From: Octopus vulgaris
Taxonomy: Eukaryota
Assembly (NCBI GenBank): GCA_951406725.2
Contig: OX597830.1
Coordinates: forward strand, 57,288,001 to 57,352,000
DNA: 64,000 bases
Direction: 5' to 3'
Shown piece by piece: positions 7,960-60,830 of the stretch. Position numbers and translations under genes: made by a program. The notes beneath the pieces are model-generated. The model was not told the origin of the DNA. It made no database searches and was given only the letters and a program-made list of their open reading frames with translations. The stretch's first letter is position 1, and each line of letters begins with the position of its first letter.

Positions 7960-8033
7960 TTTTTTATTTTATTTCTATGTATTGGTTTATGATTTTCACT
8001 GTTTGATTTGCCGAATAGTGGTTTTATCTCTAA

Positions 8034-8040
<7 letters not shown>
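7960..8040 (+). mobile_element. 3' fragment of the hammerhead fold-back family, in (TA)n
   Basis: TGTTTGATTTGCCGAATAGTGGTTTTATCTCTAATTTAATA matches 44287-44327; shorter fragment at ~37820-37850. Confidence 0.75.
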
Positions 8041-8071
<31 letters not shown>

Positions 8072-30791: not shown

Positions 30792-32139
30792 TTATAAGTT
30801 TATATACGTGATCATTTCCTCTTGGTTAGGGGGTGTGGGGTTGGTATAGGGTTGAGGGGGTGCATACATTTGGCTGTTACTGATGTAATCCTGTCTCATG
30901 ACCATCGTATCCTGGGCATAATAAGGCTGTTGTGCATCAACATTGCTCAGGAAATTCTCTTGTTTTCTGTAGGTGAATGACTGGCCATTGTATGTACAAA
31001 ACTGCTGCGGTGGGACTTGATTTGCAGGATACAGATTGGTAAATTCCTGCTTCACTTGTACTTCACTTGGGTTTGGATTGGGGAGGTGGTTAGAGTTAGC
31101 AGCACTATTGCTATTGGTGCTGCTATTGCTGCCAAAAGGTTCCAATTGATGGTTTGTTCTATTTAAATTAATCACAACAGGCTTGGTATCCACGTTTGTT
31201 TGATTTGGGTATGGTGTTGGCAAAGACAAAGACACGCTGTTTGTAAGGTTGCAGTTGCTCGGTAACTTGACAGCAACACTTGTGTTAGTGACACCAGAAG
31301 ATGTGGTGGAAACTAAGTTGATATCATTTGATATTGAAGAATTGATATCACAGGTGTTAATAGGATTAGGCACTGGCCCAAGGCCATTCTCTGCTATAAC
31401 ACCACCATTATATAAAAGTGCAGTGTTGCCATCACACATGAGTGCTGCTGGAGCTGGTGGTAACGGTGGTTTGCAGGTAAGGGTGTGCTTCTTAAGTTGC
31501 TTTGAATATGAAAAAGACTTTTTACAGCTTTTACACTGAAACGGCTGTTCACCTGTATGAGTCCTCTGGTGAACAACCAAATTACTGCTACGAGCAAATG
31601 TTTTGTCACAGAAGGAACAGCTGAAAGGCTTCTCACCCGTGTGAGTGCGGATGTGTAATGTTAAGTTGTATGTGCGAGGAAATTTCTTTTTACAATATTT
31701 GCACTCAAAAGAATTCACTTTATGCGACCGAGTGTGTTCCCTTAATTCACTGAAGCAGGTGGCTGTCTTTTCACAGTACTGACACTGATACAGCTTGTCT
31801 CGATTGTGCTGGGTTTTGATGTGCTGGGTCAGCCCATACAGTCGAGACAGGGTTTTCTTGCAATACTCACAGGTGTAGCGTTTTTCTCCGCTACTATTTG
31901 TAGTACAAGCACCACCAACAGTGCTAGCGCTGCTACATCGACTGCTATTCAGGTTGTCACACTCAGAAGGGTGTTGCATCTTCATGTGTTGTTGCAGCTC
32001 CTCAGAACTATAAAATGTCTTTTGGCAGTGCTTGCACACTAATAGCTTCGCTTGAAGCTGTTCTGTTTTGGTGTCCAGAAGCTGTGAGAATCCAGGTGGT
32101 TGGCCAGCATTTATATCTGCTGCCATGCGTTGATGGTGG

Positions 32140-32174
<35 letters not shown>

Positions 32175-33203
32175 TGGATGAGTTTGGTGAGGAGGAAGAG
32201 GAGGTGGTGGTGGTGGAGGAGGGGCATGCTGACCAAATTCCAGCTGTCTGGCAGTGTTGCTATCAATTGATTGATTAAAGTCAATTTGGTTTTGAGGCTG
32301 AGGGAGATGCTGCAATGTTTGCGAAAAACTTATCTCTTCGATTTTCGGTTCAACTAGATGCTGCTGCTGCTGCTGTTGCTGTTGTTGTTGTTGCTGTTGC
32401 TGTTGTTGTTGCTGGGTTTGGAAATCCAAAGACATAGTTTTCACTTGTTCTGGAGAAGCAAAGTCAACCTGGCCAGGTGTTCCCACAGAATTGTTTACCT
32501 GTGAAACAAAATCTAATTGTTCGGTCTTGAGTTTCACTGGTTCATTAAAATTTAATTGTTCCAACTTGTTTTCATTATGCTGAATGAGATCTATCTGTTC
32601 AGCGTCTCCCATTGATTGTGCAAATCCAAATTGGCTGATTGTTTGGACTTTATCATCCACAGAGACAGACTGGTTAAAGTCAAGCTGCTGTTTGCTTAAC
32701 TGCTCAAAATCTAAATCAGACTTCTCGCTCTTCACCATTTCACTGAAGTCAATTTGCTCTTGTTTTACAACGGAACTCAAATTATTTATGTCCTCTGGTT
32801 CATTCTTTATTTGAACTGGGAAGGACAACTGTTGTGCTGCCACTACATCTAACTGCTCAGGGAATTCAAGAGTTCCTGATTTCAAATCCATTTGATGAGA
32901 GAACTCTATATCTAACTTACCAGTTTGTGATGTGGGAAACTGAATTGTTGCAGTATCATCACCTGTTGGCTGCTGCGGAATAAACATCAGGTGACTCGCA
33001 TCTGCACCTTGGATTATATGAGTCTGCTGAGCAAAGTCAAACTGTGTGACATCAATTTGTGGGAACTGTGTTGGTGAGCGCTGCGAAGGTTGTTGAACAT
33101 AATTCAGCTGACCAACAGTAATGGACGTTGGATCTGAGTTTCGTACAAAGTTACTTGCAGTTGGGAATGTCTGTAAGAAAGGTTTTTCAGTTTTAAAAGA
33201 CAT
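30792..33203 (-). CDS. C2H2 zinc-finger transcription factor, 803 aa, single coding exon
   Basis: Long intact ORF with 5 C2H2 fingers and a terminal C2HC finger (~31472-32037), TGEKPF/TGEQPF linkers, polyQ, polyP and polyH tracts. Confidence 0.95.
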
Positions 33204-33311
33204 CGTGACCAGTATTTGTAGCAGCTGGTTTCACTCATAAGCAGGAACTTATAAAAGAGTTTACACACTGTGGATGATTTCAATGTTGAGACAGCAGCAT
33301 GAAGTTGGATT

Positions 33312-37784: not shown

Positions 37785-37872
37785 AACACCATTTTAGTTT
37801 AACATCTATGTATGTGTATATAGTGGTTTTATCTCTAATTTAATTTAAATATATATATATATATTTACTGTT

Positions 37873-43451: not shown

Positions 43452-43488
<37 letters not shown>

Positions 43489-43527
43489 TACTTTAGGAAT
43501 GAGAACCCAGGTTCAAAATTTCTCCAA

Positions 43528-43573
43528 GACACCTGATGAAGGTTGAAGAGTATATCTGCCGAAACGTTGTGTT
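43528..43573 (+). ncRNA. Minimal type I hammerhead ribozyme (family H copy 43488-43625)
   Basis: GACAC CTGATGA A GGTTG...CTGCC GAAA CGTT GTGTT, with ACGT palindrome in place of stem III. Confidence 0.75.
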
Positions 43574-43914
43574 AACAACAAACAAGATGAGGACAAATAT
43601 CAGTCAAATGTAAATAATGTAAATACTGTTTGGTTGTGGTAAACTGGGGCTCTGTACCAGGCACCATTCCAATTTGGTTTGTTTTCTATGGCTGGATGCC
43701 CTTCCTAATGTCAACCACTCTACACAATGTACTGGATACCTTTTAAGGGTCACCGGCACTGGCCACAACTATGATTTCACTTAGCTTGACGTGTCTCCTC
43801 AAGCACAACAAATCACCAAAGGTCTTCATCACTATACATATTCACAAACATAGATATATATCCATATGTACATATATTCTTACATATATATTCATACTTA
43901 TTACACAGATACAA

Positions 43915-43959
<45 letters not shown>

Positions 43960-43967
<8 letters not shown>

Positions 43968-44415
43968 TAAATTAGAGACAAAACCACTATTAGGCAAATC
44001 AAACAATGAAAGACTTAAGCCAATACATAAATTAATTTATATTATTTAAATATGTAACAATTATTAAAAAAATATAATTAATATCCGCTACGTCTTGATT
44101 CAAAATTAGTTCATTGTTTAAAACTCGCCAAGAAAAATTTTGAAACACCTGATGAATGACTGCGACCTAAAAATTTGATGACAGCAGCCAGGAAACGATC
44201 GTAGTGGATATTAATTATATTTTTTTAATAATTGTTACATATTTAAATAATATAAATCAATTTATGTATTGGCTTAAGTCTTTCATTGTTTGATTTGCCT
44301 AATAGTGGTTTTGTCTCTAATTTAATATAATATAATATTTTACTATAAAATTGGATTCAATCCTAAATCTGATTTTTCCCTGTAAGTTTGGATTTATTCC
44401 CTAATATTTATTATT
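43960..44415 (+). mobile_element. Penelope-type terminal fragment with inverted partial copy, in (TA)n
   Basis: ~133-bp inverted repeat 43960-44092 / 44200-44333 around a hammerhead; 3' extension homologous to 59745-59810. Confidence 0.8.
44146..44206 (+). ncRNA. Type I hammerhead ribozyme
   Basis: CAC CTGATGA A TGACTGC...GCAGCCA G GAAA CGATCG TA GTG; palindromic stem III ACGATCGT, GUA cleavage triplet ending 44203. Confidence 0.8.
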
Positions 44416-44432
44416 ATATATATATATATATA

Positions 44433-52683: not shown

Positions 52684-55330
52684 TTGGCCACCACTGCCAC
52701 CAAGCCACCCATCATACCAACACCAACGCCATTTCTACTAATGAATATAAGAGGCTTGCTGCAGAACAGCAGTAAATGCAAAATTGAGCACCTGAAGAAT
52801 CTTTCTGCATGTAATCAAGCTATATGCATTGCACTTACAGAAACACATCTATCTGCAGACATAAATGATGCGGAGATACCCCATACCAATGTATGCTGTC
52901 TTCTGTACAGACAGAAGAAAAAGATGTCACTGTGGAGTTGCAATGTACATCCGAGAAGATGTCACACCATTAACCCTGTTATTGAACTGGAACACGGTGT
53001 GTGACACACTCATGGTACATCTAAAGCAACTTGATATAGTGATATGCACACTATATTGCCCACCTGATGCCTCAAATCATGATGGAAAATTTGAGGAAAG
53101 CCTCAGTGTGATAAAGGAAGTACTAACACAATTGGATCAACATATTCCAGATGGGTGACTTCAACTTCCCCAACATCAGGTGTCCTGAGGGCAATATAAC
53201 CCCACGAATGACACACTAAGAGCGAAATCAAGCAGAATCTCTACTTGATCTTACAAAAATGCTATTCATGGAGCAGATCATCCTCTCTCCAACCAGGCAC
53301 AAAAATATCCTGGACCTCTGTTTTACAAACAATGTGGAAATTATCCACAATGTAAATATATCACTGACAATATTCTCAAACCATAACATGATAGAACTGA
53401 CAATGTATGGCCCAGAATTAACTAAAGATAAACTCCACACAGATGGCACTCAAACCCTATCCAGCCTAAATTTCTATAAGGCTGACTGGAAGTCACTTGA
53501 AAAACAGAAACTTTAGCAGGACAGGCCTAAAAGCCTCTCTATGCAAGACATAGATATGAAACTCAATTAATTCATATCAATAATGCAAGCCATATGCATT
53601 AAATACATCCGAGAGAAGGGAGCCAATACACAAAAAAACATCATTCCCCAAGACAGGAGAATACTCATGCAGCGGAGAATAAAGATCTCGAATCATTTCA
53701 ACAAACACATCAATGACAGTGGGAAATCCCAGCTGACAGAGATGGAAAATAAACTCAAAATCTCCCATGGAAAAAAAAGAGAGGAAAATCCTAAAGCTTT
53801 CTACATGTTGGCAAAGGAGTCTGCCTCAGTATGCTATAAGATAGGGCCACTATTTGGCAAAAATGGCTCACTAAATGCAGACCCAGGGAAGATAAGTGAA
53901 GCACTAAATAAACAATTCCAAAGTGTTTTCACTTTTTCCCTCTGGAAAATATGCAAATAAACAAGCCGAAGGAGTTTTTCAATGTAATTAATCTATTTCG
54001 AAAAGAGGCAACCATCGATTACATCAACATAACAGAAGAGGATGTAATATTGGCCATTGATGAGATGAGATCGAACTCAGCAACAGGCCCAGATGGACAC
54101 CCAGCTGTTCAACAAGGTGGGAGAGTGCTGCATGATTTTCCAAAGGGCAGGAGTCAGACAGCTCTAGCCAATGATGCTCACTCTAAAGAGGAACCAATTC
54201 TCAGTGAAGTCCCACAAAGAGCTGTACTGGGACCACTACTATTTGTGGTGGCCCCCTCAGACATGCCATCTACAGTACAGTCAGCCAATCTGACCAGTTA
54301 TGCTAATGACACCAAAGTATTGCAGGCAGTTAGGAACCCAGAGGACACCATAAAACTGCAGAAAGACCTGAACGAAATATACAAATGGGCTTACAAAAAT
54401 AACATGCAGTTCAAGGCTATGAAATTTCAGGCACTCCACTATTGGTCAAACATCAGGCTAAAATCGGAATACAGTGGACCAGAAGGTAATACTATCCCAG
54501 AGTCAAAGTCGGTGCATAACCTGAGGGTTCACATGAGCAATGATGCAACATTCCATGTGCATATTACCAAGATGGCAACACTGTGCAGGCGAGTGGCTGG
54601 ACGGATTCTGAGGACATTCAAGAACCAGGAAAAGGGAGGGGCCCTGCTACCCCTACGGAGTACTTTTGTTCTCAGCTGCCTGGACTACTGCTCTCAACTA
54701 TGGTCCTCAGAGAGAGTGAAACAAATTGTGGAACTCGAAGCAATACACAAAGAAGATTGACACGATGCAAAAGATGAGCTACTGGGAGAGGCTAAGGGAG
54801 CTGAGTCTTTATTTCTGGGAGAGGCTAAGGGAGCTGAGTCTTTATTTCTGGGAGAGGCTAAGGGAGCTGAGTCTTTATTTCTGGGAGAGGCTAAGGGAGC
54901 TGAGTCTTTATTTCTGGGAGAGGCTAAGGGAGCTGAGTCTTTATTTCTGGGAGAGGCTAAGGGAGCTGAGTCTTTATTTCCTGGAGAGAAGAAGAGAGAG
55001 ATATGCAGTGATATATATATTTGGAAGATCTTAGAGGGTTTAGCTCCCAATTTTGGAATTGACAGCTATACCAATCCTCAAACTAGACAGCACTGCTTCA
55101 CACCAAAGATCCCATCTTCCCCATCTAAAATAAGGACTCAGTACTGAAATAGTCTGGGTTTCGAGGGCCTGCAATTGTTCAACATCCTTCTAGGCAACCT
55201 TAGAGATCTACATGGTATTGATGTGGAAGTTTTCTGGACAGGTTTCTCTCTGTGGTACCAGATGAACCCACATCACGGCAGGAGACGCAAAGAAGTGTAA
55301 CTCCATCCAGAAACCGGAAACCATACCAAA
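52684..55330 (+). mobile_element. CR1/L2-clade LINE ORF2 (APE endonuclease + RT), frameshifted, RT internally deleted
   Basis: MNIRGL, ALTETHL, GVAMYI, GDFNFP, PTR.KNILDL, NFYKADW, VPQRAVLGPLLF, YANDTK, LQKDL..IYKWA, LDYCSQLWS. Confidence 0.9.
54782..54979 (+). repeat. Perfect 33-bp tandem repeat x6 inside the LINE
   Basis: CTGGGAGAGGCTAAGGGAGCTGAGTCTTTATTT, encoding WERLRELSLYF. Confidence 0.95.
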
Positions 55331-55503: not shown

Positions 55504-56091
55504 TTACACACATATATATTAGTAACTGGGGCAGTGATGGATTCATCCTTATCATTTAATGGCCATTTTCCCGGATGGCATGGGTTCAATGGTCTGACAG
55601 GAGCTACCAAACCAGAGAGCTGCACCAGGCTCCAATTGTCTGTTTTGGCATGATTTCTATGGCTGGATGCCCTTCCTAATGCCAACCACTTTACAGAGTG
55701 GACTGAGTGCTTCTAATCTAACACCATCACCACCAGAGCTTTATTCATGGCACCGGCACAGATATGAACTTACAAACAGTCAGACCAAAATGCTAAAAAT
55801 GATTGTAATATAAAAGAGTAGACACAAAAAAAAAAAAAATCAATAAAGAACTCTTAAATATTTCTGTATAATGAGCAGATGTCTCAGGGTCACAAGCATT
55901 TCACCCCTTAGCCTGTAGCTTCACCTGAGTGGCACAGCAAGGCCTGAACTAGTCTTAACCTATAGAAGGGTTTCATTTACAGTCTCTTCTCAAAAACAGC
56001 CATCTATTTAAATGTATCAGATGTGTAAGTCCATTCTGATGTAATAAAAGTCTTGTTTTTCAATAAAAATAATTTAATAATTTAATTATTT

Positions 56092-56315
56092 GCATTATTT
56101 ACATTTGATGGATATTTGTCCTCATCTTGTTTGTTGTTAACACAACATTTCGGCTGATTTACCCTCCAGCCTTCATCAGGTGTCTTGGGGAAATTGCGAA
56201 CCTAGGTTCTCATTCCTATGGTATTTTTCAATGATATTATTATTATGGTCACTGCCTGGAATCAAACTCGGAATCTTGGGGTTAGTAGCCCACTCTTAAC
56301 AATGCCATATGCCCA
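56092..56315 (-). mobile_element. Family H SINE, near full length: tRNA-like head + hammerhead
   Basis: Minus strand GGCATATGGC...GTTAAGAG.GGGCTACTAACCCCAAGATTCCGAGTTTGATTCCAGGCAGTGACC, (AAT)n spacer, then hammerhead. Confidence 0.85.
56139..56184 (-). ncRNA. Minimal type I hammerhead ribozyme
   Basis: GACAC CTGATGA A GGCTG...CAGCC GAAA TGTT GTGTT. Confidence 0.75.
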
Positions 56316-57244: not shown

Positions 57245-57465
57245 TAGTTTCTGCTGGTAACAAAGGGGTTCTCCCTCAGAATGATGGGCAGATTGTATGA
57301 AGCGACTGAGTCAAATGAGACGGTACATTGCAAGGAGGCATGGGTCTTGAATGCAAAGGATCTGAGAAGATGAGAAGGAAATGAAGTGAGCCTGCTTTGC
57401 AGGACGGGCAAAACTGGTGTGCATGAACAACTGAACAAATAAGTGGAGGCAAAAACTAAATCATA
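57245..57465 (+). mobile_element. RTE-clade LINE fragment
   Basis: LLVTKGFSLRMMGRLYEA...EAWVLNAKDLRR*EGNE.SLL. Confidence 0.7.
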
Positions 57466-57494
57466 AAATGATGCAGGTGTGTTATTAATATTTC

Positions 57495-58307
57495 TAGAGG
57501 GTTGTTATTGAAAATATCAACATTAGCAGATAATTTAGATAATCTAAATGAAATATTCTTTACTAAGTTTTTAGTAATTGCTCCAGGATGATTACTAAAT
57601 TTGCTAATGTACTTAAGATTGGTCAACGGTTTACGATATGGGAGGTAAGAGTCACTGTGTAAATTAAGTGTAATATCTAAAAAGTTGGCCTTCGTCATAT
57701 CGTCATCAAAAACGATTTTTAAGCCCATTCTACTGAAAAAATTAACTAAACTATTCTTAACTTTTTGTACCTTTTGGTTGGAAACATTTTGGAGGTAAAG
57801 TAAACAATCATCATGATATAGACCTCCATAAATGTTAGGGAACTCTTCAGCCATTTCAAAAAGAATATATATACAGACCACATCAGCTATCTGTGCTGAA
57901 TCAGCACTTCCCATTGGTATATCGAAACTATCTGGTGTGTCTTTACGGACCCACAACTTATCATCAAATTTAATAATAGATCTTCTGGCTGCCAACACAA
58001 CATTAATTTCTTCTCGGGTGAGACCAGCTTTGTTATGAGCAAGCCAAAGTGCCTTATTAAGTACTATTGGATTGATAGATGAATAAAAATTGGAAATATC
58101 AAACTGGATAAACTTAGTACTCACCTTATTGTTAATAGAACTAAACCAGTCAACTACTTCAAACGAATTAGTCCATAAACTAAGTTTTAATGTTTTGATT
58201 AAATTAGGAATATATTTATCTAGTATATTTTTACTAAGGATACCGATGTCAGAGCTAGAAGGGCAGATAAGCCTTAATGATGGGTTAGTAAAAAAATTTC
58301 TATCCAT
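57495..58307 (-). mobile_element. Naiad-like Penelope reverse transcriptase (inverted segment)
   Basis: RLICPSSSDIG, W.NS..V.DWF, FDISNFYSSI, FDIPMGS.D.A, GLYHDD, NFLDITLNL, PYRKP, YISKFSNHP. Confidence 0.9.
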
Positions 58308-58577
58308 TACTCAACATTTAGGGATAGAAATAAATGGAATAGTACCGGTCTCAGCAAACTGATTTGGGATTTAAAAGACCACAATGAACAATTTCATTTA
58401 GAATGGTTGATTCTCTCAATTTCGATACCATATGACAAAGGCAAGAAATTCTGTCTTCTCTGCAATTCTGAGCTATTTTTCATTATTTTTTCTAAAAATA
58501 CTCTAGTAAACACAGTTATAGAGCGAGCATACAGATGTAAGCATTGACAAAAACATACATTTAGTGCATATAAGTAG
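58305..58577 (+). mobile_element. Naiad-like GIY-YIG endonuclease C-terminus (not in ORF track)
   Basis: HYSTFRDRNKWNSTGLSKLIWDLKD...W.IL....PYDKGKKFCLLCNSE...RCKH*QKH...*. Confidence 0.85.
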
Positions 58578-58778
58578 TCTCTATCATTATATATAATTTA
58601 AACTTTAATTTCCTTTATATTTAACATTCACTATTAATATCCCTACTCTTTCTGTTAGCTACTTATGACGTTATATCATATAACGTTTTTTTAAACAATA
58701 TTAATAGCGTTCAGTTAATCACTATACAAATCCATCATTTTTTGCTAAAATATCTTATTGACGAGTTTCGTTTTTTTC

Positions 58779-58862
58779 ACTTTCTTGAGGAGAAGATTGC
58801 ATTGTTTATACCATTTATTCTTTTGAATAGTATCAGTGGAATTTTCGAAACGTGTCGAAAGT
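58779..58862 (+). ncRNA. Type I hammerhead ribozyme in the Penelope 3' terminal region (C3U variant)
   Basis: ACTTTC TTGAGGA GAAGATT...AATTTTC GAAA CGTG TC GAAAGT; long stem II, GUC ending 58856. Confidence 0.7.
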
Positions 58863-58901
58863 AAAAATATTTGATTACACCTGCGTTAACTTCATTTTTT
58901 A

Positions 58902-58961
<60 letters not shown>

Positions 58962-59097
58962 AAACATAATCTAATAGGGTAATAAAATAAATTATTATTA
59001 CCAGTGGCCTAGCACAAAAGACGAATTAGTCATTAGACTATATATTTTTCGTATAGAAATATAATAAACAGTCTGTGCATCTAGGATTATGAAGGCT

Positions 59098-59174
59098 TCC
59101 CACTGAAGACCCTGGCCTGGCAAATATATTCTGTGTGTTTGCTAAAAAATAGGTAGAAACCGTTCGGTCTGGGA
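59098..59174 (+). ncRNA. Type I hammerhead ribozyme
   Basis: TCCCA CTGAAGA C CCT...AGG TA GAAA CCG TT CGG TC TGGGA; GUC ends 59169. Confidence 0.85.
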
Positions 59175-59535
59175 TTTAGCTGAGATGGTAAATGTTTTTA
59201 ATTTTCATTCCTTTCATGAATTTATCCATTTTTGTGTTTCTAACACTACGCTTCCTTATTTGGAAGCCTTTTATTATATTTCTATACAAAAAATATATAG
59301 TCTAATGACTAATTCGTCGTTTGTGCTAGGCCACTGGAAATAGTAATTTATTTTATTACCCTATTTGATTATGTTTAAATATTGCTTGATAAATTTGTTC
59401 GTAAATTTTTACCGGCATCCTCTCTGTTCGCCGGGTATGATTTGCGTCTGCGCAGAGGTTTGAAAAGTTAGGATATACAAACCGTTAGATCTATATGTGC
59501 TTCTAACAGTCTGTGTGTCCAGGATTACGAAGGCT

Positions 59536-59611
59536 TCCCACTGAAGACCCTGGCCTGGCAAATATATTCTGTGTGTTTGCTAAAAGGAGGTAGAAACCGT
59601 TCGGTCTGGGA
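59536..59611 (+). ncRNA. Type I hammerhead ribozyme (second tandem copy)
   Basis: Same motif as 59098-59174; GUC ends 59606. Confidence 0.85.
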
Positions 59612-59739
59612 TTTAGCTGAGATGGTAAATGTTTTTAATTTTCATTCCTTTCATGAATTTATCCATTTTTGTGTTTCTAGCACTACGCTTCTTTATTTGG
59701 AAGCCTTTTATTATATTATATATATGTATATATACATAA

Positions 59740-60830
59740 TATTAATAATAATAGTAAGGGAATATAATTCCAAACTTACAGGGAAAAACTCAATTTAGCA
59801 ATTCTAAATCAAATTTCATGATATATAATATATGTATATAATTTAGAGAAATAACCTCTATTAAGCAATTCAATAGTGAAAGACATTATCAATATTAAAT
59901 AGAAAAAATTAAATATACTATAATAAATATTATTTAAAAAATCAATAAATTAAATAAATACGCCCTATTGGGCAGTTTTTAAGCTAGCTCCTATGGAGGG
60001 CTCTTCATTAAGCCTTGGGCCCAACAATGACACTTTATGCATTGAGTACATATTAAATTTTATTAAACTTGAACAATATTTTTCAAGCAATGAACAATTT
60101 TCATCAAAACAAGGATATAATTTGTCAACTTGGAACTTATTGTAAAGCTTCATGATAAACAACATATTTTGTCGTCCCATTCGAGGAACAGTACAAATAG
60201 CTCATTTTCATTCCCTACCCTTGAACAACCAACTGGCAACAATAAACTTACCTTTTAAAAGTCCAACGATAATTCTTCTGCCACCATTAATTTAAAGATA
60301 ATTTGATATATGTCGGGCCTTACTTTTCGTACAAACAATTATTTGTAGTATCTGGTACATATCTAAACCCCTGCTCATAGTTTGATGGAAAATTACACCA
60401 CTGTCGCTAAAAACTATTTTAAAGTGCGATTCTTATGGTTTGGAATTACTCTAAATGTATTTGACCATAAAGATGTTTGAAATTTCATATTTTTTAGTAT
60501 TTTTTTAAGGTAATAACAAATTTAGTCAAATCTATTTTCATGCAGTCAGAGTGTGCTAAGTTTCTATAGCTCTGACAGCCAATGGCTTGAAAACAGGTCT
60601 GCCAAATTTTTTTAATATCTGAAAAAATACTAAGTTTCCAACATTCTTATGGTAGAGAGTTGTGAAAAGTAATATTGTATGAGAGAGTGAGTTCAATATG
60701 TATTTCAGTTCCAAACATTATGGTTAAATTACTTGATACAGTTATAATATTTAGAGAAAGATTCTTTCAAAATGTTTATTTAGGAAATTACTTTTGGAAA
60801 TATTTATAATATTTAGATAAATATTTTTTT
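59740..60830 (-). mobile_element. Longer, older relative of the 43960-44415 element
   Basis: AGGGAATATAATTCCAAACTTACAGGGAAAAA and TTAGAGAAATAACCTCTATTAAGCAATTCAA match its 3' end; right boundary uncertain. Confidence 0.55.

Follow-up and report, generated by a model that had tools for sequence, protein, structure and literature searches.

What the hammerhead ribozymes of Penelope-like elements are for is treated as an open question in the literature (PMC8557442, PMC11167929). A fold-back in a 64,000-nt stretch of Octopus vulgaris DNA (the window), which is AT-rich and microsatellite-rich animal DNA, brings this question down to a single locus: one of its arms begins almost at the predicted cleavage site of a hammerhead motif. 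An earlier note on this DNA had read the proximity as the trace of a self-cleaved RNA end that was reverse-transcribed during insertion. Does the breakpoint record such a cleavage, or did it come to lie there by chance?

The fold-back as such was borne out by an inverted copy at 43958-44092 (minus strand), which is complementary to 44200-44334 at 133 of 135 positions across a spacer of 107 nt. The longest exact inverted match measures 76 nt, compared with a maximum of 26 in 300 shuffles. The direct copy (44093-44416, plus strand) holds the 3' end of the repeat, is 5'-truncated 56 nt upstream of the hammerhead, which it spans intact, and alone continues into a tail-like extension of ~80 nt (44335-44416, plus strand). 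Runs of (TA)n lie on both sides, at 43924-43962, where they overlap the outer end of the inverted arm, and at 44415-44432. We presume that they represent the target site, a role suggested by the (TA)n bias of Hydra and Naiad elements (PMC8557442).

At all five subfamily alleles checked (5/5), the two arms carry the same base, and each arm has one private change. The inverted arm retains the family base opposite 44258 (>99% of depth), where the direct copy has a private one; opposite 44205, the private base is on the arm side (44087). The shared alleles and the single private changes therefore point to one template sequence for both arms, and fit arms that would have been identical at insertion and acquired two substitutions later. 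These private substitutions also speak against a chimera of assembly or amplification, as do the outer end at a family 3' end and the occurrence of similar structures elsewhere. We consider such an artefact extremely improbable, even though the junction of the locus was not among the differences listed in the four aligned runs. That listing begins at 1% of depth, and with a summed depth of ~1,900-38,000 near 44200-44204, single-copy joints could not appear in it.

The repeat forms one high-copy dispersed family with three further copies in the window, and part of it was present in 20 of 24 listed runs (9 studies, 4 organism labels). The runs listed with the repeat include no RNA run, and we draw no inference on expression from them. 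Between 538 and 2467 contigs were aligned per run in the four runs. Behind 44334, loose contig ends read (TA)n in all four (19, 24, 9 and 26 contigs), and two of the three other window copies (7976-8062 and 37820-37858) stop at the equivalent position. The third (59743-59953) runs ~80 nt beyond it, as does the direct copy at this locus. From the loose ends and the ends of the window copies, the outer end of the inverted arm thus coincides with a family 3' end, and the extension is confined to one side, on the direct copy.

This layout of an inverted truncated copy, a one-sided extension and (TA)n, taken with the hammerhead, also upholds the Penelope-type insertion that the earlier note had proposed. 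Published insertions have a 5'-truncated copy in inverted orientation next to the 5' end, carry a tail on one side and favor (TA)n (PMC8557442, PMC3846280). The locus shares with EN+ Penelope-like insertions that have an inverted 5'-truncated pLTR and a one-sided tail (Craig et al. 2021, PMC8557442 Fig. 2; Arkhipova et al. 2013, PMC3846280) the inverted 5'-truncated copy, head to head and adjoining the 5' end, the one-end extension, the (TA)n flanks and a hammerhead near the 3' end, within the terminal repeat; its family is likewise dispersed, 5'-truncated and associated with AT-rich or (TA)n targets. It differs from these insertions in having an extension of ~80 nt instead of the published 30-40 bp, a spacer instead of a junction palindrome, and no ORF: the 22-codon open stretch in this copy is not significant (39% by chance, any of three frames). 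Non-LTR retrozymes consist of tandem repeats with a hammerhead per unit, and this locus has one hammerhead. We infer from architecture and hammerhead that the family is Penelope-like. The inverted-insertion architecture is already known, and the locus is a textbook case of it in which the arm overshoots the cut.

The family was not returned by searches with short motifs of the PMC8557442 supplement, in which wrapped FASTA and cut protein lines could hide a match, nor by motif searches in full texts, a scope outside the repeat libraries Repbase and Dfam. An 18-nt motif used to scan metagenomes gave 30 loci, all of them (30 of 30) chance matches 18-24 nt long without extension, which we rejected.

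One (TA)n-rich stretch of the window (57456-59953) accommodates three different Penelope-like families. One of them is a Hydra-clade element broken by a head-to-head inversion (57456-58904). Its reverse transcriptase part (57456-58310, minus strand) resembles Hydra-1_Obim by eye, and its plus-strand part comprises the endonuclease C-terminus, the 3' UTR and a U3-bearing hammerhead (58785; cut after 58856), followed by (TA)n. We rejected this reverse transcriptase as a partner of the present family: it comes with an endonuclease end and a hammerhead of its own and shows no similarity to the repeat at E<1e-3. A second fold-back of another family (58962-59717), with an inverted arm at 58962-59068 that has a 96-nt extension, is a partial tandem of 438-bp period. 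It holds two hammerheads (C3 at 59103 and 59541) with a 46-nt stem-loop II and C-A at the first stem II position, and is retrozyme-like. Two families in the stretch have an unusually long stem-loop II (46 and 55 nt), in which they resemble the motif of the present fold-back with its 36 nt. Apart from these, the window contains a degenerate non-LTR reverse transcriptase fragment (53912-54760, plus strand; Pfam RVT_1 E 1.8e-4, below cut-off) and an 812-codon open frame (30792-33230, minus strand) in which a C2H2 zinc-finger array and runs of Gln/His/Pro can be recognized by eye.

The hammerhead motif of the fold-back is of type I and lies in the direct copy at 44146-44206 (plus strand), with a predicted cut after 44203. 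Stem I has 3 bp (44146-44148/44204-44206), and stem II has six pairs, including A-G and A-C mismatches, below a distal loop of 19-20 nt. Stem III is a perfect 8-nt palindrome of the dimer type (44195-44202, plus strand; self-duplex -10.0 kcal/mol), inside which the inner end of the inverted arm falls. An explicit-stem scan found four motifs of this kind in the window, counting the present one, and none in any of 10 shuffled windows. Rfam gave no match at gathering threshold over the whole window, and on 44093-44340 three unrelated sub-threshold matches and no hammerhead.

Compared with minimal type I hammerheads, the motif has the CUGANGA and GAAA core boxes (44149-44155 and 44192-44195; C3 at 44149, G12 at 44192, A15.1 at 44195), an NUH triplet (GUA, 44201-44203), a short stem I, a long stem II and a palindromic stem III suited to dimers. 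It departs from them in the 36-nt stem-loop II, in the match to an Rfam hammerhead model, which it lacks, in a stem I of 3 bp instead of 4-5, and in the G10.1-C11.1 pair, replaced by A-G in this copy and by A-U in 20-51% of depth. In File S2 of PMC8557442, 15 of the 25 distinct Hydra motifs (counted by eye) likewise have a mismatch directly after the core; there it is U-U or U-C and in none A-G, whereas this family has A-G or A-U. The 36-nt spacer falls within the 35-50 nt range of the Naiad half-core motifs, and (TA)n targeting is common to Hydra-clade and Naiad elements and this family (PMC8557442).

Elsewhere in the window, the 3' part of a SINE-like repeat (43485-43625 and 790-934 on the plus strand, 56087-56287 and 558-738 on the minus strand) forms a textbook minimal hammerhead with the extra A, G10.1-C11.1 and 5-bp stems. 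The repeat has what we take, from its resemblance, to be a tRNA-like head.

The inverted arm had been said to begin within 4 nt of the GUA cut at 44203. The distance held; the arm, however, crosses the scissile bond and starts upstream of it, since the 3' cleavage product begins at 44204 and the arm at 44200, so that four bases of the 5' product are included. This counts against the claim that the arm was reverse-transcribed from a self-cleaved RNA end (likelihood ratio ~0.3-0.65). On that account, a tandem transcript would have been cut at its first hammerhead, the cDNA from 44334 would have run off at 44204, and the other cDNA would derive from an uncleaved downstream repeat. The four extra bases must then match the removed 5' product by chance, with a probability of 0.0014 (local composition) to 0.003, compared with 0.0045-0.005 for a uniform breakpoint. 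The 4-nt proximity is what first recommends this account, yet because the arm includes four bases absent from cleaved RNA, the proximity lends it no support. We also rejected an alternative cut after AUC at 44200, which, as read from the sequence, would shorten stem I to 2 bp and abolish the palindrome.

A precedent exists in R2, in which cleavage by an HDV-like ribozyme reportedly defines the 5' junction. The likeness lies in a ribozyme cut that sets a 5' junction; the difference is that R2 is cut at the precise junction, whereas the arm overshoots by 4 nt. It has also been proposed that hammerheads process Penelope precursors (PMC4209133). Against this stands the Poseidon element of the green anole, of which hammerhead mutants insert normally in vitro, making cleavage dispensable, and for which PMC11167929 reports no RNA-seq reads ending at the cut site. 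Taken together, we consider reverse transcription of a cleaved end very unlikely.

Chance is the most likely explanation for the closeness of the breakpoint to the self-cutting site. Under a uniform model, an inner end falls within 4 nt of the cut in ~4% of cases, a prior that we counted against this reading. The direct copy crosses the predicted cut site intact, and the three other junctions that we located (one of the same family, two of further elements in the window that bear hammerheads) break elsewhere. The same-family joint between opposite strands (44185/44282; one contig each in runs X1 and X3, no shared letters) has offsets of -19 and +78. In the second fold-back (58962-59068 versus 59270-59376), the offsets are +100 and -103 with a 2-nt microhomology, and the Hydra-type element, inverted at ~58310 with no duplication, breaks ~547 nt upstream of its cut. 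Among seven located breakpoints at four junctions, only the index breakpoint lies within 5 nt of a cut.

Contig depth rises 1.15-1.6-fold across the cut; the rise is 1.9-8.4-fold across the hammerhead's 5' edge and reaches 67-172-fold in the direction of 44297-44308. Neither a ranking of parts nor the presence of ends can be read from contig depth, and the rise was not counted as evidence. The same applies to loose ends at 44200-44204, of which there were none among the 24 listed (269 further). Run X1 has no cover at 44093-44104, from which we draw no inference. A modest enrichment of breakpoints at the cut site across the family would be compatible with the contig data.

The position of the inner end inside the 8-nt palindrome, with the same ~4% probability by chance, could alternatively reflect a reverse transcriptase that halted in stem III, for example in a double hammerhead on a tandem transcript, with the cDNA joined at that point. 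Pausing would account for the 4-nt overshoot, and the only other same-family joint breaks at 44185, in stem II. The other cDNA, however, passed the same site, stem III pairing in the monomer is predicted at <=0.03, and the two other hammerhead-bearing elements break 100-547 nt off. Pausing appears quite unlikely to us.

We favor, with moderate confidence, a fairly recent dead-on-arrival insertion of the 3' end by two-primer reverse transcription on an uncleaved template, with a stop near the hammerhead by chance. The priming steps of this model are drawn from the literature. The (TA)n microsatellite would have been the target, and both nicked strands would have primed reverse transcription of the same uncleaved template sequence. 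The first cDNA would have begun at ~44334, the inner family 3' end, and ended at 44200, a truncation point close to the hammerhead by chance. The second would have begun ~80 nt further 3' (~44416), traversed the hammerhead and ended at 44093, after which both truncated products would have been joined head to head.

A Penelope-like protein is able in vitro to nick both strands and extend them, and two start sites define the tail (PMC11167929). The two start sites and both-strand priming of PAc, the green anole Poseidon (Frangieh et al. 2024, PMC11167929), would yield the geometry seen here; PAc differs in that it was studied in vitro, belongs to another clade and has a hammerhead that overlaps the ORF start. 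We counted against the two-primer reading that the comparison includes one independent same-family junction, the two others being from other families and one of these an inversion without duplication. The length of the extension (~80 nt in place of 30-40) and the lack of an ORF that would link the family to a clade were also weighed against it.

One cDNA could also have produced both arms. Running from 44416 to 44093, it would fold back, copy itself from 44200 to 44334 and be joined through an AT-rich patch to the (TA)n on the left, with no RNA cleavage. Such a course accounts for the identical templates of both arms; the TA-rich segment 44320-44338 could join (TA)n by microhomology, and a self-priming origin of head-to-head Penelope inversions has been suggested (PMC3846280). 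The junction, though, shows no clear complementarity, and in the second fold-back of the window the inverted arm goes beyond the 3' limit of the final direct copy by 96 nt, an arrangement that two primers explain more simply. We regard a self-copying cDNA as unlikely.

Could this copy have cleaved at all? The A-G mismatch reported at its first stem II pair is present (A44156 opposite G44191). The suggestion that the copy may therefore be inactive stands insofar as it is probably weak or inactive, but A-G is a common family allele and not a private lesion: T at 44191 makes up 24, 44, 20 and 51% of depth in the four runs, and G is a major family allele. G10.1-C11.1 has been called highly conserved, and single minimal motifs are inactive in vitro (PMC4209133). 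Low activity is argued better by the 3-bp stem I and the single copy, which offers no second hammerhead for a dimer, than by A-G. It is also argued by departures from the majority alleles (44167, 44168, 44179 and 44188, unphased) and by arm pairing over the cut site in read-through RNA, predicted at 0.95-1.0 with stems I and III dropping to 0. Stem I pairing is predicted at 0.21 in the isolated motif and at 0.000-0.003 in longer contexts. In relatives with an extra C behind 44145 (22-64% of depth in four runs, unphased), stem I is longer.

A 97-nt contig identical to 44119-44215 reaches a depth of 278 in run X3, compared with 25-113 for the other contigs listed there, and may point to several identical copies of this variant in X3. 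The exact, weak-looking variant recurs unchanged under two organism labels (X3 and X5), with raised depth in X3, a hint that it spread as a small subfamily.

Whether the hammerhead sets the inner arm ends throughout the family, by run-off or by pausing in stem III of a double hammerhead, is a wider question, and we consider it doubtful. Our literature search found no study mapping inversion breakpoints against Penelope hammerheads. This locus alone does not supply the evidence, nor does it speak for a positive outcome of such mapping; the very large family to which it belongs is good material for breakpoint mapping. Breakpoints piling up at the cut would be evidence for RNA processing in vivo. 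If the hammerhead did set these ends, Penelope hammerheads would have a visible role in vivo, and thousands of genomic junctions would be its record.
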